Shown: positions 25,824 to 53,457 of the stretch, piece by piece
Layout of the letters: every line of letters starts with the position of its first letter
Position numbering within the stretch: the stretch's first letter is position 1
NCBI RefSeq assembly: GCF_056712565.1
Contig: NZ_CM160072.1
Length of the DNA: 64,000 bases
Direction: 5' to 3' (one strand)
Made by a program: the position numbers and the translations under genes
Notes under the pieces: model-generated
Databases searched by the model: none
What the model saw: the letters and a program-made list of their open reading frames with translations, nothing else
Told to the model about the DNA's origin: nothing

Positions 25824-26782
25824 TGTCTGATAACCACAGGGCTGGCAGCAGAAAACCAGCCCTGTGGTAAAATACAGTAATAGCGGCGTACATCAGGCAC
25901 GCCGCTCACTCGTCCACAGATCATATACGTCATTATACTGCGCGATAACGGAGGGCTTCAGCACCCGGTCATTTCTGAGCGGGTATGAATACCATTGATG
26001 ATGCGAAGCAGCCACGGGCAGAAACGTTCTTCACAACCAGGTGCCTCCATCTTCACTGCAGGCTGAATGTGCCGGCTTGTTATCCACCAGAAATGGTATG
26101 CTCCGGTACATGCATACCCCGGAGACTATAAACGCACTGAATCATAGCCTCCCACCTCAGCAGGAGGCAGTCAGCTTTCAGGCGGAAAAACGTTGCAGTT
26201 AAAGATCGTGAGAATCGCTGTTTCGTTGCATAGCAACCCGAACAGTTGTAGTTGAAACATTTTACCTGCATCAGCACATGGTCAGGCGCCGTCTGTATGG
26301 CGTGGAATACTGATGTTTCGGCTGATGGCAAGCCTCATTCTCTGTGGAAACAGGGGCGCGCATTAGCTTCTCAACCAGAGAGTGTCACAAAGACAAATAT
26401 TGCTGAAAATCGCATTCATCGTTCAGGCGTGAATGCCCGGAGACAAAAGCCGCTGTCCGCACAGCCCCCCTCTGATCTGAACAAAAAGCATACACACAAC
26501 AGGCTCACCTGACCCCGAAAAACCATAACTTCAGCAATACCAGTGACACCAGCACGTTACCTCAGTGCCACATCTTCAGACCGCGATCAATCTGAAATGT
26601 GACTATCGGGGCAATATCCCAGTTTTGTGGTACACGATAACCAGAAAACATCCCCTGAACCGCCAGCCAGAAAGACCGGCCACAAAAGGGTTAAGCTGAA
26701 ATCGTTTATGGATTACATCGACATATGCCTGGCAGAGAATGTCCGGAATGACGAGGTTATCTTTGCGGAGATTAAGGCAATG

Positions 26783-28922
<2,140 letters not shown>

Positions 28923-30146
28923 TCAACCACGCTGAATATCAAAGGAGAGCGTTACCGGTTAAAAGAGAAACGTAAAGCTGTGGTGATGACCCAAAACGCA
29001 ACGCCTGTCAGTGAGGATGAAATGGTGAAAAGCGGACAGCACCAGTAACGGAAGTATCTTAGCGGGTACGAAAATGGCAGGATCGTGACATTGACAGAAT
29101 ATCTCCTGATCATCCTGAATGACTGCAGTTGCTGTGGAAAAGTAAGCTGTCTCCACCCACGGCACGACTTAACAGGCATTCCGTAACTCCCCCAGACTTA
29201 CTATGACGCATTATCGGTGCACTTAAAACCGCAGACCGCATTGCGGGTGTTACTGCATGACAGTCTGACCGTATTGTGAGATGTCGGCAGGAACCGATGT
29301 CCGCGCAGGGGGGAACTTCCTGCAGTACCTGACGCTTCAAATAGTATTAACCGTAGGGCGTTGTTGGTTCCGGATCGCGGAAATGGGAGCACAGGTCTGC
29401 TACGGGGTGTACCTCTGACAGTAAATCCGGCTCGCTCATCTGACAGCCTCTCTCCCGGAAAAGACCAAAAATGAGATCGTCTCCTCAACAGCAGAGAAGA
29501 GGTCTTGACAGACAGGCTACATTGCATACGATTTATGAAGAAAAAGACAGCAAATATGGAGGTTATAGCGGAGAACACCCTACGAAATTCCTATGAAAAA
29601 CGATTGAAAAAAATATCAAATTCGATTCGTTTTTATATGCTTTTTGGGAACGTGGCGATGACGAACTGTTGCATGTGCAGAGGAGAATGCACCCGGAAGC
29701 ACCAGAATCATCCAGAAAGGCAGAACGATTACGCATCAAACCAGGAGACAGCAATATCAAGGTAATACACTGATTTAAAATGAATTTACAGCAATACGTG
29801 AAAACATTTTTTACTTAAAGGAGACAGATGCGCTGAAGAGAGTGCAGGTATTTTTATATAAAAATGAGAAGATTACGGGATATATATCCGGCACACTATG
29901 ACCGGAGAATACCAGTCAGGCTTAAAAAGACAATAAATACAGTGAGTTAAATACACAGAGAAAACGAAAACGTAGTATCAGAGGGTACATCTTACAACAG
30001 AGACTGAATTTCCGGTTTTTCATAACCGGCCATTCCGGAAAGTGCAGGCGGCCCGGAGCTCTTCTGACGCCAGTACCTGCCAGATTGTTCTGTACATTCT
30101 GTACATCATGTACGGAGGTTTTTGTTTGCTTTCTTAAAATCTGCAA

Positions 30147-31318
30147 ATGTGGGAAGAGCAGGTGAGGTGTATTGTGGGAAAGGAACTGGATGATATCTGC
30201 ACCAGCTGTCCGTATATCGATGCTATAAAACGGCACAAACAACAGCTCGGTGCCATAGAGGAATATACACAGTGGTTAAAAAAAGAACCACGGGCATCTT
30301 ATTTTTTTCTGTTCCGGCTGTATACCCGCATTCACAATACATTTTTCCCCAAAAAGCAACAACTCCCGTTCACTCCCGGTGGCACTCACTGCCCGGAACC
30401 TGATGTCACCCTTCGGGACTTAACGCTTTCCCCGGGCTACCACAGTGATTATGCCCCTCAACCCATTCCGGAGATGGACAGTTCTGCTGTTGTTCCCCCA
30501 ACTAATGAAAACACCTCGCCTCCGGAAGATACTCCCGACAACACTCCGGCCGGAGGCAATACCGGACAAGCGGAAAAGACCAGAAACTCAGGACTCACAC
30601 CCATTCCTGAAAAACGTTCAGGAATGCCCCCGGAACATCTGCGGTTTGCCACAGGGTTTCCACCGCAACCGAAGATTGCCGGTCCCAAAGGAAAGCCGAT
30701 GCGCACCGTGCATCCGGATAAAATCTACCGTGAAATTATATGGTTCTGCTCCGGTTACCTGCGGAAATCCGGACCAGAGGCTACGAGGACGATCATCAAC
30801 TCAATATTCTGTGAATGGGCCAGCATCTTCAATGATTACTCCTCCCCCTTTTCGTGGGTGGACAGCAGGGACAGTGAACAGTGTGACTGGTTATGGAACG
30901 CCATGCAGGTCCGGTGTGTGGGAACCCCGCTGAATCCCCTTACCCGGAGCAGAAATACTGGTTCGCCTGCGCCACGTTTGATAACTGGGAAGGCTGGAAT
31001 GAGCAACAGGTACAGTTTTTACTGGAAAGTAATCCCAGACGGAACAGAGCGAAGTTTACGCAGGCCTCCTTCCAGGCCCCCAGGATTCAGCATAAAGCGA
31101 TTCTTCTTGATGAGCTGAAAAGTGCCCGGGAGCAACAAAAAAGGCGTGATGAACGTGCTGATGGTTCCGTCCCGCTGAAACTGTCCGGAAAAATCCACAA
31201 ACAGCTTGAAAGTATTGCCCGAAGTCGTGGTGTCCTCCCAAAAAAACTGCTGAATGAAATGATTGAGCAGGCGTACCAGGACTTTGTGGCAAATGAGCAA
31301 CACAAGACACTGAGTTAA
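30147..31318 (+). pseudogene. hypothetical protein, apparently frameshifted (ORFs 30147..31118 and 30893..31318 overlap)
   Basis: Two overlapping ORFs in different frames; Pro/Thr-rich low-complexity stretch (NTSPPEDTPDNTPAGGNTGQ); basic C-terminal tail. Confidence 0.35.
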
Positions 31319-32159
31319 GGACCGCAGGGCCTCCGGTTACCGATTCTGCAGCATACACAACGAATGTGTCCGGCTCTTACCTGTGGGGGCCGCACTAAAG
31401 TTACGCATTGAGTATGAGTGGGTAATCCCGGATGAGAATATCCCGGTTTTTACACTATTCACTGAAGGTGCGACATATCATTCAGTCTCTCTGAATTCTT
31501 CATTTCAGTGGCCCCGGCTACAGTCGTTTAATCTCCTCCACGAACCGGGGCCGCAACTTGTTGTGTCAATACCAAATTGTTGGTCATTACTGTCTTGTGT
31601 CACTGGCGCTGACAAGTGAACTGAAATCCGCACCTTAATATTCTGACTGGCTGCGTACATTCATGGCATGAAGCGGCCGGAGCGGCTGAACTGAAGGTCC
31701 GTTGTGAGCGAACAGCGGACATTCACTACACATGGTTCAAACATGAACCGGAGCTTTATTGTCTAGCTGTCAGTGTACTGCGATTTACCCGCTCGGCTGT
31801 CCAGAAAATCGGTCTGAAATCCAGTCATTAAAGGGCCTTAGCCTGACATTAAGCAACTTGGTAGGCGGATAGATAATAGAAATAGGAATGCGCAGGTCTG
31901 TCATGTTGCCTAGAACGGTGACAAGCTGTCCGGTGCGAAATCATTCCGGCAGCGACAGGCTCATGTGTCAGCCCGACGCCCAGACCGTCAACGAGCATGT
32001 GGATCTGCGAGGCGTTATCGTTCGCAGCGATGTTAAAACGAACAATCTGCTCATCTTCTAGAAGCACAAGTGCTTTAATGACATTAAGGCGGTCTATATG
32101 TTGCATTACAGACTTCCTATTGATCTTTACCTGAGGCTGAAGCAACCACGTTAATCCGA

Positions 32160-32927
32160 CTATTTTTCGATTGCACCATCCACTATCACCATCGATCTTC
32201 CCTGAGCACAACGTTCAACTCTCCCGCGTACGCCGTATACCTGCGCAAGGCTCTCTGCATGGATCACCGTTTGCGGGTCGCCGCTGTCGATAAGTTTCCC
32301 CTCTTTCAGCATGATGACCTGGGCGGCATGCCGCAGTGCGATATTGATATCGTGTAAGACGACCAGCGTAACCATATTGCGTCTTCGCGTTTCGCGCGAT
32401 ACAACATCCATCACATGGAACTGATAATTGAGATCCAGCGCGCTCAGTGGTTCATCCAGCAATAATAATGCGGGGCGGCGAATAAGCGACTGTGCAAGCC
32501 CCACCAGCTGCTTCTGACCGCCGGACAGGCTATCGAGGTAGTTCATTGCCAGATGTGCGATGCCTAGCTCTTCGAGCAGCGCTATAGCCTGCGCCTGATT
32601 TTGCCCGGCGCCGGAGGCGCGCTGGGCGACAACCACCGACTCCAGCACCTGTAAATGCACGCCCTGCGGCAGGGACTGCGGCAGGAACACAACTTTTTCA
32701 GCCCGACGAGCAAACGGCAGCGATAAGAGATTCTCTTCATTCAGCCAGGCTTCGCCACTGGCGCGATTTAGCCCGGCCAGGGCGCGCAGTAGCGTTGATT
32801 TACCGCAGCCATTAGGCCCCAGCAGTACAGTGACTTCGCCGCGCGGCAGCGTAGAAATCGACAGATGCTCAATAATCCGCCGTTTGCCGTAACCGGCGCA
32901 CAGCGCATTAATCGTAAGCCCGCTCAT
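32160..32927 (-). CDS. ABC transporter ATP-binding protein (iron-siderophore/hemin FecE/HmuV-like)
   Basis: Walker A GPNGCGKST, signature LSGGQKQ, Walker B LLLLDEP. Confidence 0.85.
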   Translation of the reverse strand: MSGLTINALCAGYGKRRIIEHLSISTLPRGEVTVLLGPNGCGKSTLLRALAGLNRASGEAWLNEENLLSLPFARRAEKVVFLPQSLPQGVHLQVLESVVVAQRASGAGQNQAQAIALLEELGIAHLAMNYLDSLSGGQKQLVGLAQSLIRRPALLLLDEPLSALDLNYQFHVMDVVSRETRRRNMVTLVVLHDINIALRHAAQVIMLKEGKLIDSGDPQTVIHAESLAQVYGVRGRVERCAQGRSMVIVDGAIEK

Positions 32928-33982
32928 GACATACTCCCTCGATGACGCATTACAATGCTCAGAAAGAACGGAACGCCTACCAGCGAGGTAACAATTCCTA
33001 CCGGTAAAATGACACCGGGAATGATGTTCTTCGACGCTACCGAGGCCAGCGATAGCACCAGCCCACCGATAAGGATGCTTCCGGGCAAATAAAAGCGATG
33101 ATCTTCTCCCAGCAACAGGCGAGAAATATGCGGTGCAACCAGGCCAATAAAGCCAATTGGCCCCACAAACGCAACCGAAAGGGCCGCCAGCAGGCTGATG
33201 CGCAGCAGGGAACCCAGGCGCAAACGGCGAACATCAATGCCAAAACTCATCGCCCGCTCTTCGCCGAGGCGTAGCGCGGTAAGCTGCCAGGCACGACGCA
33301 GCGACCAGGGTAAAACAATCGCCATCGCCGCCGCCAGCACCGCCAGTTTCTCCCATGATGCGCGAGCCAGGCTGCCCATCGTCCAGAACACCAGGCCCTG
33401 CAAAGTATCTTCATCGGCGACAAACTGCATAATGGACACCAGCGCATTGAAGGTAAACACCAGCGCAATCCCAAACAGCACAACGCCCGACGTCGGCACG
33501 CGCGTCCAGCGGGTCAGACTATCGAGCAGCAGGGCGGACAGGAGCGCAAAAAGAAAAGCGTTTGCCGGTATAAACCCGCTTTCGGGAACGCCGGGAATAC
33601 CGATGCCCAGAACAATCGCCAGCGCTGCGCCAAAGGCCGCCGCCGACGAAACGCCAAGCGTAAACGGGCTGGCGAGGGAGTTATTCAGAATAGTTTGCAT
33701 CTCTGCCCCGGCCAAACCCAGCGCCATTCCTACCAGGAGCGCCATCAGCGCATAGGGCAAACGGATGTCCCAAACGATAACCCGCATGCCGTTAGTCGCC
33801 CCGGACGGATGCATCAAAGTCTTTATCAGCGAATGTAAAGGGAGCCCTGAGGGGCCGAGGGTGAAATCGAGCAGCAGCGAAGCAATGATAGCGATAAAAA
33901 TAACCGCCAGTATTACCAGACGCTGGCGAAAAAGCTGGCGATAGCGGTTCTCGACCGACAGCGTACTTTCCAATACAGTCAT
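32924..33982 (-). CDS. ABC transporter permease, FecCD family
   Basis: 352 aa polytopic membrane protein; 4-nt overlap with the ATPase gene. Confidence 0.8.
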   Translation of the reverse strand: MTVLESTLSVENRYRQLFRQRLVILAVIFIAIIASLLLDFTLGPSGLPLHSLIKTLMHPSGATNGMRVIVWDIRLPYALMALLVGMALGLAGAEMQTILNNSLASPFTLGVSSAAAFGAALAIVLGIGIPGVPESGFIPANAFLFALLSALLLDSLTRWTRVPTSGVVLFGIALVFTFNALVSIMQFVADEDTLQGLVFWTMGSLARASWEKLAVLAAAMAIVLPWSLRRAWQLTALRLGEERAMSFGIDVRRLRLGSLLRISLLAALSVAFVGPIGFIGLVAPHISRLLLGEDHRFYLPGSILIGGLVLSLASVASKNIIPGVILPVGIVTSLVGVPFFLSIVMRHRGSMS

Positions 33983-34000
33983 GGTTTTTCACAGCCTCCG

Positions 34001-34993
34001 TTAGCGCGGCGGATTGAGCACATCGCTCATCTGCGCATCGCTTAACGTCAGGCCAAAGAACTGCCGATAAAACTCACGCGTCTCTTTGCGTATATCCACA
34101 TCAGCAAATCGCGCAGGATAAAGCGTTTTCGCCAGCCACAAAAATTGCAGCGCCTCTTCGCTGGTTTCACGGCACCACCAGAACATTCCTTTCGGATTAA
34201 CGTAAACGCGATGATGAATGACCGCGTCCACGCTTGCCCACTGCGGAGAACTCAGAATGGCATCCGCGTCGCGCTTGTTCATCGCGATGATAACCGCCGG
34301 ATTGGCAGTGACAATTTTCTCCAGCGCGACTTCACCCGAACGATTTTGTTGATGCTCGCCAAACCAATTTTCAGCGATATTTTTGCCGCCGGCCAGGTCA
34401 ATCCAGTCCTGGTTTAGCGAGGGTCTACCGGTGGTGGTCAGCGGATTGCCCATACTGTGATAGAGCGACACGCGCTGTGACGCAGGAAGATCTTTCAGGC
34501 GCCCGGTGACCAGGGCCACGTTGCGATCGAAGTAGCGTTGATAGGCGAGCGCTTTTTGCTGCGCATCGGGCCCCAGCACCGCTGCCGTTTGCTGTACGCG
34601 CTGCGTTAACGCCCGCAGTGAATTCGCCTCAAACGCCAGCACCTGCACCCCAGCCTGTTTCAGCAACGCCTGTTGAGGCACTACCATATTCTGCGGTACA
34701 AAAAGCATATCGACCCCCAGCGCGATAATCTGTTCGGGATTGATTTCATGCCCGCTGTTTACGCTAACTGCTGCGACTTTCTCTATGCGCGGCAGGCTCT
34801 GGCGAAACAGGGGGATCCTTTTTGCAATCATCGAGGTTCCGACAATGTTATCGCCGTACCCCAGCATGGCAATAATGGTATTTTGCGCCGGCCACGGTGA
34901 CGCGATACGCACCTCCTTGTGCGTATTTTCTGCGTGCAGGCTGGCCGCCAGCAGCAGCGCCAGCAGCGGAAATAAACGGGAGAGTTTCATCAT
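34001..34993 (-). CDS. periplasmic iron-complex binding protein (ABC substrate-binding, class III)
   Basis: Signal peptide MMKLSRLFPLLALLLAASLHA; length and position between receptor and permease. Confidence 0.75.
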   Translation of the reverse strand: MMKLSRLFPLLALLLAASLHAENTHKEVRIASPWPAQNTIIAMLGYGDNIVGTSMIAKRIPLFRQSLPRIEKVAAVSVNSGHEINPEQIIALGVDMLFVPQNMVVPQQALLKQAGVQVLAFEANSLRALTQRVQQTAAVLGPDAQQKALAYQRYFDRNVALVTGRLKDLPASQRVSLYHSMGNPLTTTGRPSLNQDWIDLAGGKNIAENWFGEHQQNRSGEVALEKIVTANPAVIIAMNKRDADAILSSPQWASVDAVIHHRVYVNPKGMFWWCRETSEEALQFLWLAKTLYPARFADVDIRKETREFYRQFFGLTLSDAQMSDVLNPPR

Positions 34994-35000
34994 TTATCCA

Positions 35001-37166
35001 TCAGAAATCGAAGGTGACGGATGCACGCACTTCGCGGCCGCCGCCGATAAACGCACTTGGGGAACCGTTATCGCCATCGGTACCCGATGGGAAGATAGAA
35101 GCCCAGTAATGTTTATCAAACACGTTGTTTACCACCACGCGGAAAGTGGTTGGGACGTTGCTCACTTTCGTGGTGTAACGCGTTCCCAAATCCCATGTGG
35201 TATAGCTGCTGGCGTAAGAGGTGTTGGTATCGTTCGCCGCGCGTTTGCCCGTATAATGGACGTTAGCGCTGTAAACCCATTCCGGTATGGACGGCAAACT
35301 GTATTCCGCCAACAGATTGGCCTGCACTTTCGGCACGCCGACAACCTGTTTATTGCTGGTTGAGGCATTCGCCGTATCTTTCAGTTTCGGGTCGAGGAAG
35401 GTCACGCCGCTGTAAATATTCAGCCCCTGCCACACATTCCCGGCAGCGGTTAACTCAAGGCCGTTGTTAACCTGGTTACCCTGCTCTTTATACACGTTAT
35501 CCGTATCAAGATAGGCAAACGGACGTTCCAGTCGGAACAGCGCGGCGCCTAGATTCATCTCGCCGATGTCCGATTTTAGCCCCACTTCATACTGCTTGCT
35601 GCGATACGGGTTTAGCGTTTGACCGGCATTTTTTACGCTCTCATCCGTCGGTGCGGTACCGCCCTGCTCCAGCGAATCGGCATAGCTAACGTAGGCCATT
35701 GTGTTAGGGGTAATTTTATACATCAGCGCGGCGTTCGGACTTAAACCATTTTCATCAACCTGGTTCGTTTGATTACCGTGCTTATCGTAGTTTTTAGTCT
35801 GCAGCCAGCTCTGGCTGAGATAGAACATTGCCGACCACTGCGGCGTAAATGTCACCGTATCGCCGAGCGTAACGCTCTGCTGAGTATTTACGCTGGAGCG
35901 GTATCGCGGCCCGCCGGTGCGGATTTTGCCATCGCCCTGCTCATCTATCGCATCCGGGTGATACATATTTGTTGTACCCCAGCTATAGCTGGAACCTGTT
36001 CCTTTGGCACTATAAAGCGACCAGACATATCCCGTGGTAGAAAGTGACAGATCGTGGCCGATAGAGCCGGTATCAATATGACCATTCAGCCCGGCGGTGT
36101 TGCTCAGGACGCGAAAACGTCCGGCAGCGGTGGAATCCTTCATCGAACGAGAGATATCGCCCTGATTGTTGAGTATTTTACTGGAAACACTACGCATCGC
36201 GCGGTCAGCCTGCTGCCAGCCCACGCCAGCGTTCATGGACCAGTCGTCGTTAAAGTAGTGGATCAGGCGAGTGCTGATGGTATCGGTAGTGAGGTCGTTG
36301 CCCGCAGTGCTGAGCGCCAGATTTTTGTCCTTCGGATTCGGCGCAGACGGCAGTTTGACGTTCGGCCCATAGTTAAAGCTACCGACATAGCCTTTCTGGA
36401 TAAATTCGTAATGGCTGGCGTCGAGCTGTAGCTGAGTGCCCGGCTGAATATTCCAGTCGAGCGCAACGGAAACGAGTTTGCGACGCAGCGTGCTGTCATC
36501 CACATTGCCTTCCCCTTCCTGATCAAGCAGGTTCACGCGATAGCCAAACCGTTTGTTTTCATCAAAATGGCCACCCAGATCGGCATGGCCGGTAAACGCA
36601 CTGCGGCTTTGATAGCCCAGCGTCACTTTACGCAGCGTCTCTTCGGTTGGGCGCTTCGCCACGAAATTAAACTGCCCTGCTGGGCTCGCCGGGCCGTACA
36701 GCGCGCCGGTCAAACTGTTAAGCACATCCATGCGCTCAAGCATTTCCACCGGAAACGCGGTTGTTGAAACGATATTCAGCCCGTCCAGACGGCTGTTGGC
36801 CACCACGCTGCCCTGCATCCCCCGACTTTGCGGACGCCCGACATCCATTCCACCGCGCGCCTGCATTTGCGTACTGGGAGAGTATTTCAGCATCTCGCTG
36901 ACGCTTTGCGCCTGCTGATTTTCAATCATCTCTTTAGTAACAGTGGTGCTGGAATATGGTGTTTCGATCCAGGATTTCGTTCCCAGCGGGCCGACATCTA
37001 TATCGTTCGTTTTGAAACCGGCACCGGCGGCAGAATCGGTGGTGTCGGCGGCGGTGTTGCCCGTGACAATCATTTCATCTTCAGAAGTAGACGAGGCATG
37101 AGCATGAAGCGGTATGAAAGACGCTAATGCTGGCAAAAGCGCAGCGAAAGTTATTTGAGTTTTCAT
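35001..37166 (-). CDS. TonB-dependent outer-membrane siderophore/iron-complex receptor
   Basis: 721 aa; signal peptide, plug domain, C-terminal barrel ending in F; first gene of the four-gene uptake operon. Confidence 0.8.
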   Translation of the reverse strand: MKTQITFAALLPALASFIPLHAHASSTSEDEMIVTGNTAADTTDSAAGAGFKTNDIDVGPLGTKSWIETPYSSTTVTKEMIENQQAQSVSEMLKYSPSTQMQARGGMDVGRPQSRGMQGSVVANSRLDGLNIVSTTAFPVEMLERMDVLNSLTGALYGPASPAGQFNFVAKRPTEETLRKVTLGYQSRSAFTGHADLGGHFDENKRFGYRVNLLDQEGEGNVDDSTLRRKLVSVALDWNIQPGTQLQLDASHYEFIQKGYVGSFNYGPNVKLPSAPNPKDKNLALSTAGNDLTTDTISTRLIHYFNDDWSMNAGVGWQQADRAMRSVSSKILNNQGDISRSMKDSTAAGRFRVLSNTAGLNGHIDTGSIGHDLSLSTTGYVWSLYSAKGTGSSYSWGTTNMYHPDAIDEQGDGKIRTGGPRYRSSVNTQQSVTLGDTVTFTPQWSAMFYLSQSWLQTKNYDKHGNQTNQVDENGLSPNAALMYKITPNTMAYVSYADSLEQGGTAPTDESVKNAGQTLNPYRSKQYEVGLKSDIGEMNLGAALFRLERPFAYLDTDNVYKEQGNQVNNGLELTAAGNVWQGLNIYSGVTFLDPKLKDTANASTSNKQVVGVPKVQANLLAEYSLPSIPEWVYSANVHYTGKRAANDTNTSYASSYTTWDLGTRYTTKVSNVPTTFRVVVNNVFDKHYWASIFPSGTDGDNGSPSAFIGGGREVRASVTFDF

Positions 37167-37594
37167 GAATCACTGATCGTTATGTAAATATTTATATTAC
37201 GATCGGTGCATAGGCAAAATTATGATCCAGATCACACGTGAATGTAAGTTATTTACAAATTACGCTAACCTTCTGTCTCCGCTCTTTGCAGCATAAAAGT
37301 ATGGCGGCGCGTTGTTGAAAGCAGGAGCGGCCGGGTTGTCAGAAAGCTGGTTTGGACGCAAGTAATATATAACAACTCTGATTACCGCATACTGTCAGGA
37401 CAGTATCTACTTGAGCGTCCGCCTTTGGCACAAAGCGGACTGTCAGATTAGATTCAGACCTGTACTCATTAGCTGATACAAATCAGCCACATATACCTGC
37501 ATTCAAAATAATTTCAGAAAGATATTATCTCCGTGAATCCCCCGCCACCTTTCCGGTGCACGGGGTTTTGTCTTTTTTCACTGGGAATACATGT

Positions 37595-44059: not shown

Positions 44060-44881
44060 ATGCGATTAGCAAGTCGTTTTGGTTATGCTGCAAACCAGAT
44101 ACGTCGTGACCGTCCACTGACACATGAAGAGCTGATGCACCATGTGCCGGGGATTTTCGGGGAAGAGAAACACACGTCCCGAAGCCAGAACTATACGTAC
44201 ATCCCCACCATCACCGTACTGGAAAATCTGCAGCGGGAAGGCTTTCAGCCGTTCTTCGCCTGCCAGACCCGTGTGCGCGACCAGAGCCGCCGGGAATATA
44301 CCAAACATATGCTGCGTCTGCGGCGGGCCGGACAGATAACCGGTCAGCATGTGCCTGAAATTATTCTGCTCAACTCCCATGACGGTTCATCCAGCTACCA
44401 GATGTTACCCGGATATTTTCGTGCCATTTGTACCAATGGCCTGGTCTGCGGTCAGTCGCTGGGAGAAGTCCGGGTGCCACACCGGGGAAACGTGGTGGAC
44501 AGGGTCATAGAAGGTGCTTACGAAGTGGTGGGCGTGTTTGACCTGATTGAGGAAAAGCGTGATGCCATGCAGTCGCTGGTCCTGCCGCCACCGGCACGCC
44601 AGGCGCTGGCACAGGCGGCGCTGACTTACCGTTATGGTGATGAACATCAGCCCGTCACCACTACCGACATTCTGACGCCACGACGCCGGGAGGATTACGG
44701 TAAGGACCTGTGGAGTGCTTATCAGACCATCCAGGAGAATATGCTGAAAGGCGGGATTTCCGGTCGCAGTGCCAGAGGAAAACGTATCCATACCCGGGCC
44801 ATTCACAGCATCGATACCGACATTAAGCTCAACCGGGCGTTGTGGGTGATGGCAGAAACGCTGCTGGAGAGCCTGCGCTGA
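44060..44881 (+). CDS. DUF932-family cryptic-prophage protein (YfjQ-like)
   Basis: 273 aa; position and size match the DUF932 gene preceding the antirestriction/RadC genes in CP4-57-type elements. Confidence 0.5.
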   Translation: MRLASRFGYAANQIRRDRPLTHEELMHHVPGIFGEEKHTSRSQNYTYIPTITVLENLQREGFQPFFACQTRVRDQSRREYTKHMLRLRRAGQITGQHVPEIILLNSHDGSSSYQMLPGYFRAICTNGLVCGQSLGEVRVPHRGNVVDRVIEGAYEVVGVFDLIEEKRDAMQSLVLPPPARQALAQAALTYRYGDEHQPVTTTDILTPRRREDYGKDLWSAYQTIQENMLKGGISGRSARGKRIHTRAIHSIDTDIKLNRALWVMAETLLESLR

Positions 44882-44971
44882 TACCGTTTCCCTGAAAGCG
44901 CAGTCCTGTTCACGGCTGTCCCTTCCCCCAGACATTCCACCATTCATTTACTTTTTATAAGGAATAATCTC

Positions 44972-45457
44972 ATGACAACCTCTTCGCATAATTCCACCAC
45001 ACCTTCTGTTTCCGTGGCCGCTGCATCAGGGAATAACCAGTCTCAGTTGGTTGCCACTCCCGTCCCTGATGAACAGCGCATCAGCTTCTGGCCGCAGCAT
45101 TTTGGCCTCATTCCACAGTGGGTCACCCTGGAGCCCCGTGTCTTCGGCTGGATGGACCGTCTGTATGAAGACTACTGCGGTGGTATCTGGAATCTGTACA
45201 CCCTGAACAACGGTGGCGCATTTATGGCACCCGAACCGGATGACGATGATGACGAAACATGGGTACTGTTCAATGCCATGAACGGTAACCGCGCTGAAAT
45301 GAGCCCGGAAGCCGCCGGCATTGCTGCCTGTCTGATGACGTACAGTCATCACGCCTGCCGTACGGAGTGTTATGCCATGACGGTTCATTATTACCGTCTG
45401 CGGGATTACGCCCTGCAACATCCGGAATACGACGCCATTATGCGCATCATTGACTGA
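44972..45457 (+). CDS. antirestriction protein (KlcA/ArdB-like, YfjX/YafX family)
   Basis: 161 aa; conserved position upstream of the RadC-like gene; family assigned from recall of WPQHFGLIPQW-type motifs. Confidence 0.55.
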   Translation: MTTSSHNSTTPSVSVAAASGNNQSQLVATPVPDEQRISFWPQHFGLIPQWVTLEPRVFGWMDRLYEDYCGGIWNLYTLNNGGAFMAPEPDDDDDETWVLFNAMNGNRAEMSPEAAGIAACLMTYSHHACRTECYAMTVHYYRLRDYALQHPEYDAIMRIID

Positions 45458-45472
45458 AAGGGGGCAGGAACA

Positions 45473-45949
45473 ATGCAACAGATTTCCTTTCTGCCCGGAG
45501 AGATGACGCCCGGCGAGCGCAGTCTCATTCTGCGGGCCCTGAAAACCCTGGACCGTCATCTTCATGAACCCGGTGTGGCCTTCACCTCCACCCGTGCGGC
45601 ACGGGAATGGCTGATTCTGAACATGGCGGGACTGGAGCGTGAAGAATTCCGGGTGCTATATCTGAATAACCAGAATCAGCTGATTGCCGGTGAAACCCTC
45701 TTCACCGGCACCATCAACCGCACGGAAGTCCATCCCCGGGAAGTGATTAAATGCGCCCTGTATCACAATGCCGCAGCCGTGGTGCTGGCACACAATCACC
45801 CGTCCGGTGAAGTCACACCCAGTAAGGCAGACCGGCTTATCACCGAACGTCTGGTACAGGCACTGGGCCTGGTGGATATCCGGGTGCCGGACCATCTGAT
45901 AGTCGGTGGCAGCCAGGTTTTCTCCTTTGCGGAACACGGCCTGCTTTAA
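45473..45949 (+). CDS. yeeS: RadC-like JAB/MPN-domain protein
   Basis: JAMM motif HNHPSGEVTPSKAD; 158 aa. Confidence 0.8.
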   Translation: MQQISFLPGEMTPGERSLILRALKTLDRHLHEPGVAFTSTRAAREWLILNMAGLEREEFRVLYLNNQNQLIAGETLFTGTINRTEVHPREVIKCALYHNAAAVVLAHNHPSGEVTPSKADRLITERLVQALGLVDIRVPDHLIVGGSQVFSFAEHGLL

Positions 45950-46017
45950 CCCGTCACCGCCACAATCACATCACACCTGTTTTCACTTTTATCTTCTGTC
46001 TTCAAAGGTATCCTATT

Positions 46018-46239
46018 ATGAAAATTATCACCCGTGGTGAAGCCATGCGTATTCACCAACAACATCCGACATCCCGTCTTTTTCCGTTCTGTACCGGTAA
46101 ATACCGCTGGCACGGCAGTGCTGAAGCGTATACCGGTCGTGAAGTGCAGGATATTCCCGGTGTGCTGGCCGTGTTTGCTGAACGCCGTAAGGACAGTTTT
46201 GGCCCGTATGTCCGACTGATGAGCGTCACCCTGAACTGA
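46018..46239 (+). CDS. yeeT: DUF987 prophage protein YeeT-like
   Basis: 73-aa ORF at the conserved position before the cbeA/cbtA pair. Confidence 0.6.
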   Translation: MKIITRGEAMRIHQQHPTSRLFPFCTGKYRWHGSAEAYTGREVQDIPGVLAVFAERRKDSFGPYVRLMSVTLN

Positions 46240-46312
46240 GTGGGAATTCTGATGAGCAGAATTATCGCCACCACCGGACCATTCTTAACCGATTTTCTGT
46301 AGGGATTTTATC

Positions 46313-46681
46313 GTGTCAGACACACTCCCCGGGACAACACTTCCCGACGACAATCACGACCGCCCCTGGTGGGGGCTACCCTGCACCGTGACGCCCTGTT
46401 TCGGCGCCCGTCTGGTGCAGGAGGGTAACCGGTTGCATTACCTTGCCGACCGTGCCGGTATCAGAGGCCTGTTCAGCGATGCAGATGCGTACCACCTGGA
46501 CCAGGCCTTTCCGTTGCTGATGAAACAACTGGAGCTCATGCTCACCAGTGGTGAACTCAGCCCCCGCTATCAGCATACCGTCACGCTGTATGCGAAAGGA
46601 CTGACCTGCGAAGCCGATACCCTGGGCTCCTGTGGTTACGTTTATCTGGCTGTTTATCCGACGCCCGAAATGAAAAATTAA
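46313..46681 (+). CDS. cbeA: cytoskeleton-bundling-enhancing antitoxin CbeA (YeeU)
   Basis: 122 aa, directly upstream of the CbtA-like toxin gene; size and context match. Confidence 0.7.
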   Translation: MSDTLPGTTLPDDNHDRPWWGLPCTVTPCFGARLVQEGNRLHYLADRAGIRGLFSDADAYHLDQAFPLLMKQLELMLTSGELSPRYQHTVTLYAKGLTCEADTLGSCGYVYLAVYPTPEMKN

Positions 46682-46769
46682 CTCTCCAGAATAGCCTTCT
46701 GCTACGGCCTGGTGTTTTCACCACGCAACTTTCCCATTTTTATATCTGCATATCAGGAAAATCTTCAGT

Positions 46770-47144
46770 ATGAAAACATTACCTGTATTACCCGGGCAGG
46801 CGGCCAGTTCTCGCCCGTCTCCTGTTGAAATCTGGCAGATACTGCTGTCCCGACTGCTGGACCAGCACTACGGCCTCACACTGAATGACACACCGTTTGC
46901 CGATGAACGTGTGATTGAGCAGCATATTGAGGCAGGCATTTCACTGTGTGATGCGGTGAACTTTCTCGTGGAAAAATACGCGCTGGTGCGTACCGACCAG
47001 CCGGGATTCAGCGCCTGTACCCGCACTCAGTTAATAAACAGCATCGATATCCTCCGGGCTCGCAGGGCGACCGGCCTGATGACCCGCGACAATTACAGAA
47101 CGGTAAATAACATTACCCTGGGTAAGTATCCGGAGGCGAAATGA
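46770..47144 (+). CDS. cbtA: cytoskeleton-binding toxin CbtA (YeeV)
   Basis: 124 aa; position after cbeA and overlapping yeeW start. Confidence 0.7.
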   Translation: MKTLPVLPGQAASSRPSPVEIWQILLSRLLDQHYGLTLNDTPFADERVIEQHIEAGISLCDAVNFLVEKYALVRTDQPGFSACTRTQLINSIDILRARRATGLMTRDNYRTVNNITLGKYPEAK

Positions 47145-47335
47145 TGACACTGGAAGCCGACAGCGTTAACGTACAGGCGCTGGATATGGGGCACATTGTC
47201 GTTGACATTGATGGTGTTAATATCACTGAACTGATTAATAAGGCCGCTGAAAACGGTTATTCACTCCGCGTGGTGGATGGCCGTGACTCTACCGAAACAC
47301 CGGCAACTTATGCCAGCCCTCACCAGTTGCTGTAA
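47141..47335 (+). CDS. yeeW: small prophage protein YeeW
   Basis: 64-aa ORF overlapping the cbtA stop by 4 nt. Confidence 0.55.
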   Translation: MMTLEADSVNVQALDMGHIVVDIDGVNITELINKAAENGYSLRVVDGRDSTETPATYASPHQLL

Positions 47336-47490
47336 GACAATGCAGTGATACAGGGTATAGTGCCATTAACCACAGAAACAGCACTGTTGTCCTGTATTAA
47401 GCAGGCAAGAGAAGATGTCCTTACCCTGCGCCATCTGCAGCTTCTGCACCAGAACCGGTGAATCTCACTCAACAGGCTTCATTTCCCCTG

Positions 47491-47521
47491 ACGCCAGCCT
47501 GAATACAGCTGGCGTTTTCAT
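47491..47521 (+). terminator. rho-independent terminator after the cbeA-cbtA-yeeW unit
   Basis: Hairpin acgccagcctgaatacagctggcgt followed by tttcattt. Confidence 0.55.
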
Positions 47522-47717
47522 TTATAAACAGAAAGGAAAACCGATAATAATGGAATGGACGCCCCGACCATGAAGCAACGGTAGGATATTACTGATAAAC
47601 CTTCCAGTGGAGGTGCGTTATGGCCGTTTTAACGATTAGCATTGACCTGACAAAAAATGAATTCCAAATCCACGGTCTGGGTAGGAACAGAAAAATCTAA
47701 GCTCAGAAAACGGATTA

Positions 47718-47878
47718 AAGTAAGCGTCAACGGAGCACCGTATTGACGCTTATTTATTGGTGAGAACTACGTTCCATGGCAGGAGTTCGTCAACACGGTT
47801 GGAGGGCCATTCCGGCAGTATGCTCAGAATATGGCGCAGATACGCTTCCGGATCGATACCGTTCAGACGGCAGGTGCC
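47718..47878 (-). mobile_element. IS66-family right-end remnant (in-frame transposase C-terminus plus terminal repeat), inverted copy of 13770..13949
   Basis: Reverse-complement translation GTCRLNGIDPEAYLRHILSILPEWPSNRVDELLPWNVVL; GTAAGCG terminus at 47718. Confidence 0.55.
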
Positions 47879-47889
47879 TGCTTTTCCGG

Positions 47890-48132
47890 CAACAAGCAGG
47901 AATCTCAGCGCTGAAGCAGGAATTAGAGGTAAAAACGCCCTACCGGGCCATGAATCACCCGGTCATTGGAGTAGTAACCAAAGCAGATTTAGCCAGCATG
48001 GAACAAATATCTTTGGTGAAAAGTTGGTTACGGGAAGCTGGAGCGCACAACGTGTTAGTAACCAGTGCAGTTAATAACAATGGAGTTACAGAACTTTTTG
48101 CCTTGCTGCATACAGAAGAAGGCTGTTGTTAA
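47890..48132 (+). pseudogene. yoeF: EutP/PduV-like GTPase C-terminal fragment (yoeF)
   Basis: ...NHPVIGVVTKADLASMEQISLVKSWLREAGAHNVLVTSAVNNNGVTELFALL resembles the C-terminus of EutP/PduV; no N-terminal P-loop present. Confidence 0.55.
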
Positions 48133-48187
48133 TTTCGATTGGTTCTCAGATGAGAATGATGACGGTGATACACAGATAAGAATCAAT

Positions 48188-48216
48188 GAGCAATGAGGGT
48201 TGCCGGGCAACCCTCA
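48188..48216. terminator. hairpin (aatgagggttgccgggcaaccctcatt) downstream of yeeX
   Basis: Perfect inverted repeat read in sequence. Confidence 0.45.
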
Positions 48217-48232
48217 TTGAATAAAACGGGAA

Positions 48233-48562
48233 TTACTTCGCTTCGCCGTTTTTCATTTCGCCCATAGCTTTCAGCTTTTTGGAGATATCGCGGCGTTCTT
48301 TGGAGAGCTCGGCATTTTTGATGATGTAATCGTCAACGCGATCTTCATAGTCACCTTTCATGCTGGCGATGATGCCCTGGATTGCTTCAACGCTCATCCC
48401 TGGCTTGATGTAATCGCTCAGGTTGTCCAGCAACAGGACGCGCTTCTGGTTGTCACGGATCTTTTTCTCAACGTCCTGAATTTCACGTTGCAGTTTGTTC
48501 TTACGACGGAACAGACGAACAAATTCCAGTACGTCCTGGAATGAAGGCTTGGTAGTTTCCAT
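48233..48562 (-). CDS. yeeX: UPF0265 protein YeeX
   Basis: [42 protein letters not shown]... 109 aa. Confidence 0.9.
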
Positions 48563-48733
48563 TTTTATACCCCTGATAATGTGAGAGTCGGATTCGTTTA
48601 AGCAACCGCTATTCGTTAGGGCCAACATTACTCATAGCTGCCGCAGATGACAATGCTTTTATCCCTTTTCACTATCATACCCTTTATCCTTGCTGAATCG
48701 AAGCAGCAGCAAGATGATTCTGAAGTTCAGGAA

Positions 48734-49792
48734 TTATTTGCGCAAGGCCCGGCAAATCAGATTCGATAGCAACTCAAGCTGATGTGCCGTTTCCATGTTC
48801 AGCCACACATAACCATAGATTGGTGTTTCCACGACTTTCAGATCATGGTGGTTATCGAGCAACTGACGCAGCTCTTCCACAGCATCGTTCAATTTTTCCG
48901 TATTGGCAAAAACCGGCTGCGGATTACCTTCGTACAGCGCATGAACAAGGCTCAGCAGTATTTGCTGCATCATGTGCTGGGTATCACGAAGTTTTTGCGC
49001 GTTCAATAACACGAAATGGCTGGGGCGCGTGGCCCAGTATGCATTGATTTGCAACTCCAGCATACAAACCAGATTGCGATTAATGGTCTGGATACCTTCA
49101 TATATCGATTTGGGAATACGGGTTTCTTTGCTGGCGGGCGCAATCAGCCCACGCATTTTCACGGCATCGGTCAGCAGTTTTTGTAGATGGCTTTCCAGAC
49201 GTGGGCGTTCGAGTAAGTTCGGTGAGAATGCAGATTGATAGACCCGATTATACTCGGTCAGACTTTTCGCCAGTTGAATGCGCCAGTGGATGAACGCCCG
49301 TTGTGGCCAGATACCGGTAAACAACATTGCCAGTAAAGAGCCGAGGATCACATCGCCGCTTCGCCATAACGCCGTATCAATTTCACCTGTCGGGGAACCC
49401 ACAACAATTGCCAGCGTCACCCCAATCAATAATCCTTGATACGGTTTCTTGCCCAGCGCCAGCCAACCGCAAAGAAACATCGCCGCCGCGCACCAGACTA
49501 ACATCAGCGGTAACGAAATTAACTCCAGTTGCAGAGCGATAAGACCTAAAATCGAACCCAACACCGTACCGCCAATACGTTCGAAGGCACGAGGGACAAC
49601 GTTCCCCCAGAACGAGATTGGCCCCATAATCACCACCATGGTGACCAGCGGCCAGGTGCTTTCCGGGATAGTAAACAGGCGGATAATGAGAAAAGTGAGC
49701 AGGAATGCCAGCGCGACCCGAGTACCATGCACAATGCGGTAATGGCGGTATACCCGGATTTCAAACGGGCTTAATGACTTATCGGCACGCAC
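48734..49792 (-). CDS. yeeA: inner-membrane protein YeeA (FUSC-like)
   Basis: 352 aa, N-terminal polytopic membrane domain. Confidence 0.85.
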   Translation of the reverse strand: MRADKSLSPFEIRVYRHYRIVHGTRVALAFLLTFLIIRLFTIPESTWPLVTMVVIMGPISFWGNVVPRAFERIGGTVLGSILGLIALQLELISLPLMLVWCAAAMFLCGWLALGKKPYQGLLIGVTLAIVVGSPTGEIDTALWRSGDVILGSLLAMLFTGIWPQRAFIHWRIQLAKSLTEYNRVYQSAFSPNLLERPRLESHLQKLLTDAVKMRGLIAPASKETRIPKSIYEGIQTINRNLVCMLELQINAYWATRPSHFVLLNAQKLRDTQHMMQQILLSLVHALYEGNPQPVFANTEKLNDAVEELRQLLDNHHDLKVVETPIYGYVWLNMETAHQLELLSNLICRALRK

Positions 49793-49989
49793 GCAGAAAC
49801 TCCGTAATGAAGATTAAAAGCGCTCATAACACATCTGTCGGCCAGAAGGCGCGCCTCTGAGTTATCCGACGGACATACCGGGAACAGTGTAATTTCCCGG
49901 CAGGAGCGAAAAATTTGAAAGGCGCATCTTACTCTTTTCGCTTTCAAAAAAAGAGTGGTCTTCGCGTCAACACACCGCCCTGAGATGAA

Positions 49990-50463
49990 TTAGTGATGTT
50001 TTGGCTGCACCGCAACATACATTTCGATATCCCAGTACCCATCTTCCGCGCCATTGTTCAAGTAAACCTCGAAGCAGGGCTTTGGTAACATTTCATAGGC
50101 ACTGTCCTGCAAGAGGCTATTAAAGAACTGATACCAGGGTTTAGCAAAATCATCACCGACTACACGAGCCACCGCCACCGCATACTGACCACCTGAAATT
50201 TCTGTCAGAATGACGCCCTCACTGTTTTCGGGGAGCGTAAAGTTATTCGGCACCGTCACGACGGTGTCGCAGCGTAATTTTTCGGCGGGTGTTTCATCTG
50301 GATTGTCGTAATAGACAGCAACCCACTCCTTCGGCACAATATTTTTGCTATCTATCCACATCATCAACTGCTCAAAGCCTTTCTTTACCGTCTGTTCCCA
50401 CGGGCCAACGAGATGGAAACCTGCAACGGTACGTTTATCTTCCTGCTTAATCTCGTAGTTCAT
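49990..50463 (-). CDS. sbmC: DNA gyrase inhibitor SbmC (GyrI)
   Basis: [36 protein letters not shown]... 157 aa. Confidence 0.9.
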
Positions 50464-50477
50464 GACGCCCCCATTAA

Positions 50478-50497
50478 TACTGTTTTTATATACAGTA
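50478..50497. promoter_or_regulatory. LexA (SOS) box upstream of sbmC
   Basis: tactgtttttatatacagta = CTGT-N8-ACAG palindrome just upstream of the sbmC start codon. Confidence 0.75.
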
Positions 50498-50581
50498 TAG
50501 TTGCAATATTAAAACCACAAGGAATGAGTGTTGATTATGCGAGCAGATTCGCACTCCTGCCAGTCTGCTGCAAAAGAAAGG

Positions 50582-51754
50582 TCAGTCCTTATGGTGGAAA
50601 TAATCACTCAGCCGGGAAAACATGCTGCCTTCCCCGACAGATTCCAGGGTAACCAGCGGCCAGTGCGCCACCTGTTTATCACGGTCGTAAAGTTCAATTT
50701 CCCCTACCCGCTGATGGGCGCTAATTGGCGCGGTGAGTTCTTTACCATCAAGGGTATATTTGGCTTTGATATGTGGAATTTCGGCTTTCGGTAGCACCAT
50801 CCAGAACTCTTGTTCCGTTCCCAGGGCGATATTTTCTTTATCGCCATACCAGATGCGTTCCGTACCAACCTTTTTCCCACGGTGCAAAATTTGCACCGTA
50901 GTAAAGTTTTGTTGACCCCAACGCAGTAATTTTCTTGCCTCTTCCTCACGACCTTTTGCGCTGTCAGCCCCCATTACCACTGCAATGAGACGACGCTGCC
51001 CATCTACAGCCGAAGCAATGAGATTAAACCCGGCACCAGAAGTATGACCCGTTTTCAGGCCGTCAACATTCATGGTTTTATCCCACAATAACCCGTTACG
51101 GTTTTGCTGGGTGATACCGTTCCAGGTGAGGCTTTTCTCACTGTACATATGATAAAACTCGGGCTCGCCGTGGATGATAGCGCGAGAAAGCACAGCTAAA
51201 TCATAAGCCGAGCTATGCTGGCCAGGTGCATCCAGACCATGCACTGTTTCAAAATGCGTATCCTTGAGATGCAGCTTCTCGGCATAGTTGTTCATCATTT
51301 CAACAAACTGCCGTTGCCCACCGGCAATATAGTCAGCCAGTGCAACACAAGCGTCATTTCCGGAATCCACAATTAAACCACGGCTTAAATCACGTACCGA
51401 TACGCGATCGCCCTCTTTCAAAAACATCAGTGAAGAACCGACAAACACCGGATTATCTTTCGCCCACGCATCACGCCCCACGGTGACAATATCGTCTGGC
51501 GTAATGCGATGACTATCGATAGCGCGATCCACGACATAGCCCGTCATCAGCTTTGTCAGGCTGGCGGGATTGCGCTGTTGATGCTCATTACCCGCGGTGA
51601 GAATCTGACCGGTGGTGTAATCCATCAATACCCAGGACCCGGCATGAATCTCTGGAGGTTGAGGTGAAAAAGGAATGTTTTCCGCCGCAAAACCAGACGA
51701 TAAATTAAAAACGAACAAAGAAGCAGCAATAATAAGACGGCGTTTCAACAGCAA
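50582..51754 (-). CDS. dacD: D-alanyl-D-alanine carboxypeptidase DacD (PBP6b)
   Basis: Signal peptide, active-site SxxK (PASLTK), SGN and KTG motifs. Confidence 0.9.
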   Translation of the reverse strand: MLLKRRLIIAASLFVFNLSSGFAAENIPFSPQPPEIHAGSWVLMDYTTGQILTAGNEHQQRNPASLTKLMTGYVVDRAIDSHRITPDDIVTVGRDAWAKDNPVFVGSSLMFLKEGDRVSVRDLSRGLIVDSGNDACVALADYIAGGQRQFVEMMNNYAEKLHLKDTHFETVHGLDAPGQHSSAYDLAVLSRAIIHGEPEFYHMYSEKSLTWNGITQQNRNGLLWDKTMNVDGLKTGHTSGAGFNLIASAVDGQRRLIAVVMGADSAKGREEEARKLLRWGQQNFTTVQILHRGKKVGTERIWYGDKENIALGTEQEFWMVLPKAEIPHIKAKYTLDGKELTAPISAHQRVGEIELYDRDKQVAHWPLVTLESVGEGSMFSRLSDYFHHKD

Positions 51755-51956
51755 ACCCTCAGGAGTTTCAAATAGCTGTTCTTTTTACGGAAATACTTAT
51801 GAACTGGCTGGAATAAAGTGCAAGAAAATGTGACTACCCTCTCATTTTTATCTGACATGATCTGTTGCCACTCGCTGCCAAATTGTCGCGCTAAAGCTGA
51901 TTAGCACGGTGATATTTGATACTCTGGCAGACAGCAGAAACAACGGATTTAACCTA

Positions 51957-53384: not shown

Positions 53385-53393
53385 AACAAAAAA

Positions 53394-53420
53394 GCCGGAG
53401 CGACAAACTCCGGCTTTTTG
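53394..53420. terminator. bidirectional rho-independent terminator between sbcB and plaP
   Basis: aaaaaa-gccggagcgacaaactccggc-ttttt. Confidence 0.75.
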
Positions 53421-53457
53421 AGATTTACCGGATGATTATGTCATCCGGTTTGTAAGA

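Follow-up and report, generated by a model that had tools for sequence, protein, structure and literature searches.

We analysed a 64,000-nucleotide stretch of an Escherichia coli B2-type chromosome (NCBI RefSeq assembly GCF_056712565.1, contig NZ_CM160072.1; hereafter the window), which extends from cobUST to the his operon. In K-12 this site is occupied by the CP4-44 remnant. Our subject is a plus-strand gene of a genomic island, every source name of whose family members is "hypothetical protein", together with the non-coding leader in front of it, in which the hexamer TGTACA recurs at 9-bp spacing. A preliminary description of this DNA had reported that repeat as a triple. The loci with which it was compared carry numbers beginning with L. 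The features that concern the repeat and the gene are the following:

30088-30114, plus strand: three 9-bp units, TTCTGTACA, TTCTGTACA and TCATGTACG, the reported TGTACA triple
30097-30117, plus strand: hairpin T2, a nine-pair stem TTCTGTACA / TGTACGGAG with two G-U pairs and the 3-nt loop TCA, found by a terminator-like scan
30118-30134, plus strand: T-rich tract GTTTTTGTTTGCTTTCT after T2
30164-30176, plus strand: Shine-Dalgarno sequence GAGG (30164-30167) and conserved start codon GTG (30174-30176)
30174-31318, plus strand: coding region of the island protein, split into two frames here
30943-30945, plus strand: frameshift site, CCC in the window and CCCC elsewhere, found by comparison with UTI89

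TGTACA occupies 30091-30096 and 30100-30105, and TGTACG follows at 30109-30114, in an exact 9-bp period that was also called by Tandem Repeats Finder. The triple is thus present where it had been described (30091, 30100 and 30109, the third copy TGTACG), and it exceeds what shuffled sequence yields. In the 64-kb window TGTACANNNTGTACA with at most one mismatch gave three matches against 0.10 expected, and none of 100 shuffles reached three. Single TGTACA hexamers showed no enrichment in the window (14 seen, 12.6 expected). Other pairs of the hexamer, at 45195 and at 57483/57495, were dismissed as chance occurrences located within the antirestriction gene and yefM.

To place the repeat among its relatives, we aligned the upstream regions of eleven alleles of the E. 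coli clade (protein identity 70-100%). Units 1 and 2 are an exact tandem duplication of TTCTGTACA. Three units were found in the window and four close alleles; two units, with a clean 9-bp gap exactly one unit long, were found in L020, L021, L022, L002 and L005. L006 has no TGTACA at this position and reads TCTGCCGTGACGTGCAGAGG / TCTGCCGTGACGTGCAGA. With a 75-nt query, the matching span was 75 nt (three units) in 1,065 E. coli records and 66 nt (two units) in 910, that is, about 54% versus 46% of the records that carry the site. Because two units are found in the most diverse lineages, we regard them as the ancestral state. The third copy arose recently, by tandem duplication of the 9-bp TTCTGTACA, and is polymorphic; what it duplicates is the 5' arm of an older inverted repeat. 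Some three-unit alleles (L017 and L019, from E. coli FDAARGOS_536 and CFS3313) have TGTACC as the middle copy, which opens the pair that closes the loop (-7.4 versus -8.5 kcal/mol). Upstream of the gene in the more distant homologous loci examined, the TGTACA array is absent.

Because TGTACA reads the same on both strands, a pair of direct copies at 9-bp spacing is at the same time the two arms of a stem-loop. The ancestral two-unit form is the inverted repeat TCTGTACA-TCA-TGTACGGA, followed by a T-rich tract. In the window hairpin T2, 57-77 nt before the GTG start, is formed by copies 2 and 3, although in a three-copy allele copy 1 may pair with copy 3 instead. Three of its nine pairs are G-C. 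Folding gave -8.5 kcal/mol for the window, -10.3 kcal/mol for L005, where a U-G pair has become C-G, and -6.8 kcal/mol for L006; against shuffles, z was -1.9 to -3.1. Directly 3' of the stem, GTTTTTGTTTGC passes the cut-off of the scan for a U-rich tract (at least five T in eight positions). The run GTTTTTGT is kept in main-type alleles; L022 has a shorter form (TTTTGT), and in L006 the run has decayed to ATTTTGT.

Across the eleven-sequence alignment, 94.9% of the cells of T2 were paired, versus 18-61% when the partners were slid against each other. Both partners had changed in three of the pairs; 3 of 500 shuffles came to that level. TGTACA is gone from L006 and L031, but they have kept both a stem (TCTGC/GCAGA) and the T-run. 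Each of the five diverged alleles of the E. coli clade has T2, and each also has a second hairpin further upstream (T1, below). In none of 11 distant loci, whose leaders are short, does such a hairpin lie between the start codon and the CTACG array described below. Judged from these alignments, the conserved feature in the E. coli clade appears to be the stem-loop with its T/U tract, not the hexamer sequence.

The gene itself is broken in the window. Its open reading frames (ORFs) at 30147-31118 and 30893-31318 overlap in different frames, as had been described, and comparison with UTI89 traced the split to one C missing from a C-run (window CTTACCCGGAG, UTI89 CTTACCCCGGAG). The upstream frame continues to a stop at 31116-31118. 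The protein is thereby truncated at about residue 256 of 381 and loses its C-terminal ribbon-helix-helix (RHH) module, which is left in the other frame. In all other genomes compared the gene is intact. Of the 1,979 E. coli records retrieved with a 68-nt query over the site, none was identical; all have four C and, with the extra C, reach at most 98.6% identity. Since no record has the three-C allele, the lesion is private to this genome or a sequencing error, and the split ORF is accordingly a private 1-bp deletion or such an error. A programmed ribosomal frameshift and a phase-variable homopolymer were considered and rejected on the same count (0 of 1,979). The label "frameshifted hypothetical gene" given earlier was therefore correct, with intact homologues elsewhere.

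Other single-base homopolymer differences between the window and UTI89 exist. At 14438 the window has six G and UTI89 five. The gene affected encodes a PfkB-family kinase and is labelled frameshifted in the RefSeq annotation of UTI89; the window allele may here be the intact one. Because UTI89 has the frameshifted copy at that position, the source assembly is not simply to be dismissed as error-prone.

The intact protein comprises 381 amino acids from GTG 30174, compared with 390 annotated in UTI89 (WP_000263646.1) from ATG 30147, a start that RefSeq also gives for some other genomes. In L002 a TGA stands directly after the ATG homologous to 30147; at the place of GTG 30174, L006 has ATG, with GGAG as its Shine-Dalgarno sequence. 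For these reasons GTG 30174, not ATG 30147, is likely the true start. PGAP already uses it in L016, L020 and L021, and the start codon would be mis-called in many records.

All protein searches and the structure model were made with the intact UTI89 allele. An AlphaFold2 model of the monomer (27-sequence alignment, mean pLDDT 74.9) predicts a helical hairpin (residues 15-57), a disordered Pro/Thr linker (64-147), a well-predicted, Trp-rich helical domain (181-296), a long helix and finally a C-terminal strand-helix-helix module of about 45 residues, as expected of an RHH fold. The linker, with pLDDT below 50 and many indels among homologues, corresponds to the Pro/Thr-rich low-complexity segment noticed earlier. 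An exhaustive HMMER search detected, at E<=1e-3, 64 homologous representatives across Enterobacterales, with 26-36% identity for full-length relatives. Genome loci of four relatives were recovered from Serratia, Hafnia, Brenneria and Enterobacter, in addition to one viral locus. A supposed intermediate relative (L027, the "61% homologue") was rejected as an error-rich copy of the same locus. The intact protein gave nothing usable in Pfam (E<=10), NCBIfam, PHROGs or PADLOC, and Foldseek found no significant match in the PDB. On the basis of the model, what had been a "hypothetical" gene product can now be described as a predicted RHH DNA-binding-type member of an unannotated Enterobacterales family.

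MatP was the best PDB profile match, though not a significant one (E 0.4, over the basic helix and the RHH; Foldseek 4d8j, E 3.9, likewise not significant). MatP consists of a helical bundle, an RHH fold and a coiled coil, and binds the palindromic matS. Both proteins have a basic helix leading into the strand-helix-helix; however, no matS-like 13-mer is present here, and the N-terminal domains and the genomic context differ.

The ~1.1 kb between a remnant insertion sequence (IS) and the gene contain no conserved ORF. An 86-codon ORF in the leader (29505-29765) has its frame broken by 2-nt indels in L005 and L006. The AT-rich stretch of ~1.4 kb reported earlier holds for the upstream part, where the G+C fraction falls to 0.375-0.425 in 29400-30200 only, but not for the ORF, which is about half G+C (~0.47-0.54). 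Further features of the leader are:

29505-29532, plus strand: sigma-70-type promoter-like site TTGACA - 16 nt - TACGAT, 10 of 12 matches (promoter scan, alignment)
29580-29645, plus strand: 11-bp-phased array CTACGAAATTC CTATGAAAAAC GATTGAAAAAA ATATCAAATTC GATTCGTTTTT ATATGCTTTTT
~29596-29634, plus strand: hairpin T0, its stem flanked by an A-tract (5') and a U-tract (3'), overlapping the 11-bp-phased array
29829-29857, plus strand: hairpin T1, TGCGCT-GAAGAG-AGTGCA (29829-29846) followed by GGTATTTTTAT, found by the terminator-like scan and conserved
30135-30140, plus strand: -10-like hexamer TAAAAT, from direct reading, absent in L006

The site at 29505-29532 is the best promoter-like site of the region and is co-directional with the gene. 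The five diverged alleles all have its two hexamers unchanged, with a slightly variable spacer. It falls within the most conserved upstream block (29495-29614), in which the window and L006 share 70-90% identity, compared with ~55% around the TGTACA site. For the proximal TAAAAT, the -35 position is taken by ACGGAG (30112-30117), with one of six consensus matches; the spacer between TGTACG and TAAAAT is 20 nt, and the promoter scan did not call the site. A proximal promoter at TAAAAT would be weak at best.

The first two heads of the 11-bp-phased array, CTACG and CTATG, which come with A/T tracts, represent a tandem motif that is found family-wide. CTACGAAATTCCTATG at 29580-29595, 48 bp downstream of the promoter-like site, occurs in every E. 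coli allele. Among the distant loci, 11 of 12 have a tandem motif yTAyr, two to four copies with an 11-bp period, which precedes the start by 98-175 bp and runs on the same strand as the gene (for example CCTACGTTTTTACTACGTTTTTG). When ten loci were tested against dinucleotide shuffles, the pattern was present in nine, versus a mean of 0.5 and a maximum of three of ten in the shuffles, the pattern having been defined after the data were seen and some of the loci being related to each other. Upon folding, the CTACG arrays of the distant loci formed no hairpins. A match to the consensus of integration host factor (IHF; YAANNNNTTGATW, for instance TAACTCATTGATT) lies 38-49 bp upstream of the array in eight of the 12 (L010, L011, L012, L013, L014, L023, L024 and L025). 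L006 has an IHF-consensus match at -387, and the main E. coli alleles have a version with one mismatch near 29760-29775. We also considered the TGTACA units as the E. coli version of the CTACG arrays and rejected this, the true counterpart being 29580-29595, ~500 bp upstream. On these comparisons, the CTACG/CTATG array is a better candidate for a regulator-binding array than the TGTACA site.

How, then, is the TGTACA site to be read? Our tentative preference, which we consider possible but somewhat short of probable, is that T2 is the last of three terminator- or attenuator-like stem-loops in a conserved non-coding leader of ~630 nt. Transcription would start at the promoter-like site at 29505-29532 and run through the leader, and transcripts would be attenuated at the weak intrinsic-terminator-like hairpins T0, T1 and T2. 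We infer that such attenuation could hold expression of the gene low unless read-through is favoured, and in other islands also that of the YeeP-like GTPase operon behind it. The extra 9-bp copy would merely supply an alternative 5' arm and is probably near-neutral. With Rho-independent terminators and attenuators T2 shares the inverted repeat, the 3-nt loop, the immediate T-rich run and the co-directional position between a promoter and a gene; two similar elements lie further upstream in the same leader. It differs from them in its A/U-rich stem; only the U-tract corresponds cleanly, and the leader is without a leader peptide or other known sensing device.

Several points weigh against attenuation. 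The T2 stem is weak for a terminator (three of nine pairs G-C, two G-U, about -8.5 kcal/mol) and its U-tract is interrupted (GUUUUUGUUUGC). The signal of compensatory change comes essentially from a single diverged lineage, L006/L031, of which L031 is the only additional allele and adds little covariation power, and the outer four pairs are common by descent. RNAalifold returned a covariation term of +5.5 for the whole leader, which provides no net covariation support, and Rfam gave no match at E<=1 over 28000-33000. Nor does the island offer a read-through factor in its AlpA, which resembles excisionase-type proteins (8c3t, TorI) and did not match the Pseudomonas aeruginosa AlpA antiterminator at E<=1. 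The latter acts by promoter-loaded (Q- or AlpA-type) antitermination (PMC7969949); here no GGGACG-N5-GGTA element was noticed, though no search was aimed at one. The likeness to Q/AlpA antitermination consists in a strong promoter, one or more terminators before an operon and an element that encodes an AlpA-family protein; given the excisionase-like AlpA of the island, it is an architectural analogy only. Finally, a tandem palindromic hexamer would also fit a dimeric DNA-binding protein, and the downstream gene encodes a predicted one.

The next best account, unlikely in our view although it deserves serious weight, assigns the site no function. On this view the inverted repeat would have arisen by chance as a palindrome in non-coding, AT-rich leader DNA; the third copy would be neutral, a product of replication slippage that owes its intermediate frequency to drift or spread together with a single island lineage by hitch-hiking. 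This agrees with a duplication that is exact and polymorphic, with the TGTACC middle copy that L017 and L019 carry without apparent consequence, with the weak stem, and with the location of the site in one of the less conserved parts of the leader (the ~55% identity to L006). Yet pairing is kept in every allele examined, including the lineage in which the sequence has been replaced, and the design of a hairpin plus T-run recurs at T1, which is also conserved.

Rather less likely still is a DNA operator, in which the tandem palindromic hexamers bind a dimeric regulator, most naturally the gene's own RHH product, and thereby repress the proximal promoter with its -10-like TAAAAT at 30135-30140. 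The third unit would add one dimer site. In its favour, the perfectly palindromic TGTACA (6 bp) recurs in tandem well above chance, and the site is located 60-85 bp upstream of the start codon and beside the -10-like hexamer. The arrangement recalls the RHH repressors MetJ, Arc, CopG and omega in that a predicted RHH protein is encoded just 3' of tandem short palindromic boxes; the met box of MetJ is a palindromic unit repeated head to tail (tandem 8-bp boxes), and Arc and CopG occupy adjacent sub-sites as tetramers. Those repressors, however, are small, whereas the protein here has 381 amino acids and two further domains. The L006 protein (P0008) shares the predicted DNA-contacting strand VPLKLSGK with the window protein, and because this strand is the same, an operator would be expected to be retained there; nevertheless TGTACA is lost in L006, and equally in L031, which has the same RHH strand. 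Distant family members have CTACG direct repeats instead of a palindromic array before the gene. Moreover, the proximal promoter is essentially without a -35 element and was not called by the scan, the number of units varies freely among carrying records, and with a spacing of 9 bp neighbouring sites do not lie on the same face of the helix.

That the units are iterons, belonging to a replication origin of the excised island and recognised by an initiator which the island encodes, is very improbable: direct repeats in an AT-rich intergenic region, island-encoded Gp2/YagK-YfjJ-type proteins with faint REP_ORF2-G2P matches, and the pairing of an IHF-consensus site with a tandem repeat array in distant loci speak for them, but only two units are ancestral and these are the arms of an inverted repeat, hexamers are far shorter than known iterons, neither sequence nor number is conserved (two units in ~46% of records, a different sequence in L006, no array in distant loci), and the adjacent gene is not of the Rep type, having a helical domain and an RHH fold and no Pfam, NCBIfam or PHROG match.

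The preliminary description had suggested a regulator-binding array or iterons and had named as grounds for abandoning this a repeat unconserved in homologous loci and an ORF without homologues. Homologues do exist; the triple repeat is not conserved in their loci, a mixed outcome that bears out the earlier interpretation only in part. As the older two units form a hairpin with a T-tract and no Rep-type gene follows, the proposed array is not supported. The striking "9-bp periodic array" is a hairpin arm that was duplicated by slippage: an ordinary, polymorphic duplication in a modest hairpin of the leader, before an uncharacterised, widespread gene that is broken here. Neither an iteron array nor a programmed frameshift should be annotated at this locus. 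What the locus mainly offers is an annotation for the protein family and a conserved upstream control region (promoter-like site and phased array), which may provide a concrete entry point to the regulation of the very common CP4-type islands.

The gene was found in ~36% of complete E. coli genomes. A YeeP/YfjP-like GTPase lies directly 3' of it in nearly every locus recovered for a full-length relative outside the window's island type (L002-L004, L006-L010, L020, L021, L024-L026 and L028); exceptions are the cut locus L023 and L005, where other genes are interposed and the GTPase lies ~4 kb further downstream. Beyond the GTPase follow DUF932, WYL and Ag43/antirestriction/RadC-type genes, and an AlpA module is adjacent in most loci. 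By this position, the gene is evidently a backbone gene of CP4-57/CP4-44-type islands and the first gene in the conserved operon (GTPase/DUF932/WYL/antirestriction) that CP4-type islands carry.

In the window and in UTI89 gene order indicates that the GTPase partner has been replaced by an iron-uptake cluster. After the gene, in 31319-37167, come ~840 bp of non-coding DNA and then, on the minus strand, iron-type uptake genes for an ABC ATPase, a FecCD permease, a binding protein and a TonB-dependent receptor. The adjoining position on a pathogenicity island resembles that of FitR, an RpiR-like protein with helix-turn-helix (HTH) and SIS domains that belongs to the six-gene fit iron uptake system of E. 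coli with its two permeases (PMC2593036). Identity with FitR/fit was rejected: the protein here has neither HTH nor SIS and no Pfam match at E<=10, the fit operon has a different layout with two permeases, and in other islands the gene is unlinked to iron uptake genes.

On its 5' side, the region of the repeat and the gene directly follows an intact IS100 copy (26849-28650, istA/istB, minus strand), inserted in an older, degraded IS21-family element (26654-29048). IS21-family fragments, including a piece of an IstB-like ATPase, are conserved upstream of the gene in most E. coli islands.

From 11866 to 44100 the window is more than 99.9% identical to UTI89. From ~44100 the identity falls abruptly to ~98.8% (44100-45100 and 45048-63841), with dense clusters of single-nucleotide polymorphisms, in a stretch that takes in the DUF932/antirestriction region and all that follows, up to and including the his operon. 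The drop suggests that a boundary of recombination separates UTI89 from the source strain near 44100. Within the non-coding stretch 3' of the gene, there is a 19-bp tandem repeat (31554-31590) and an annotated 72-amino-acid ORF.

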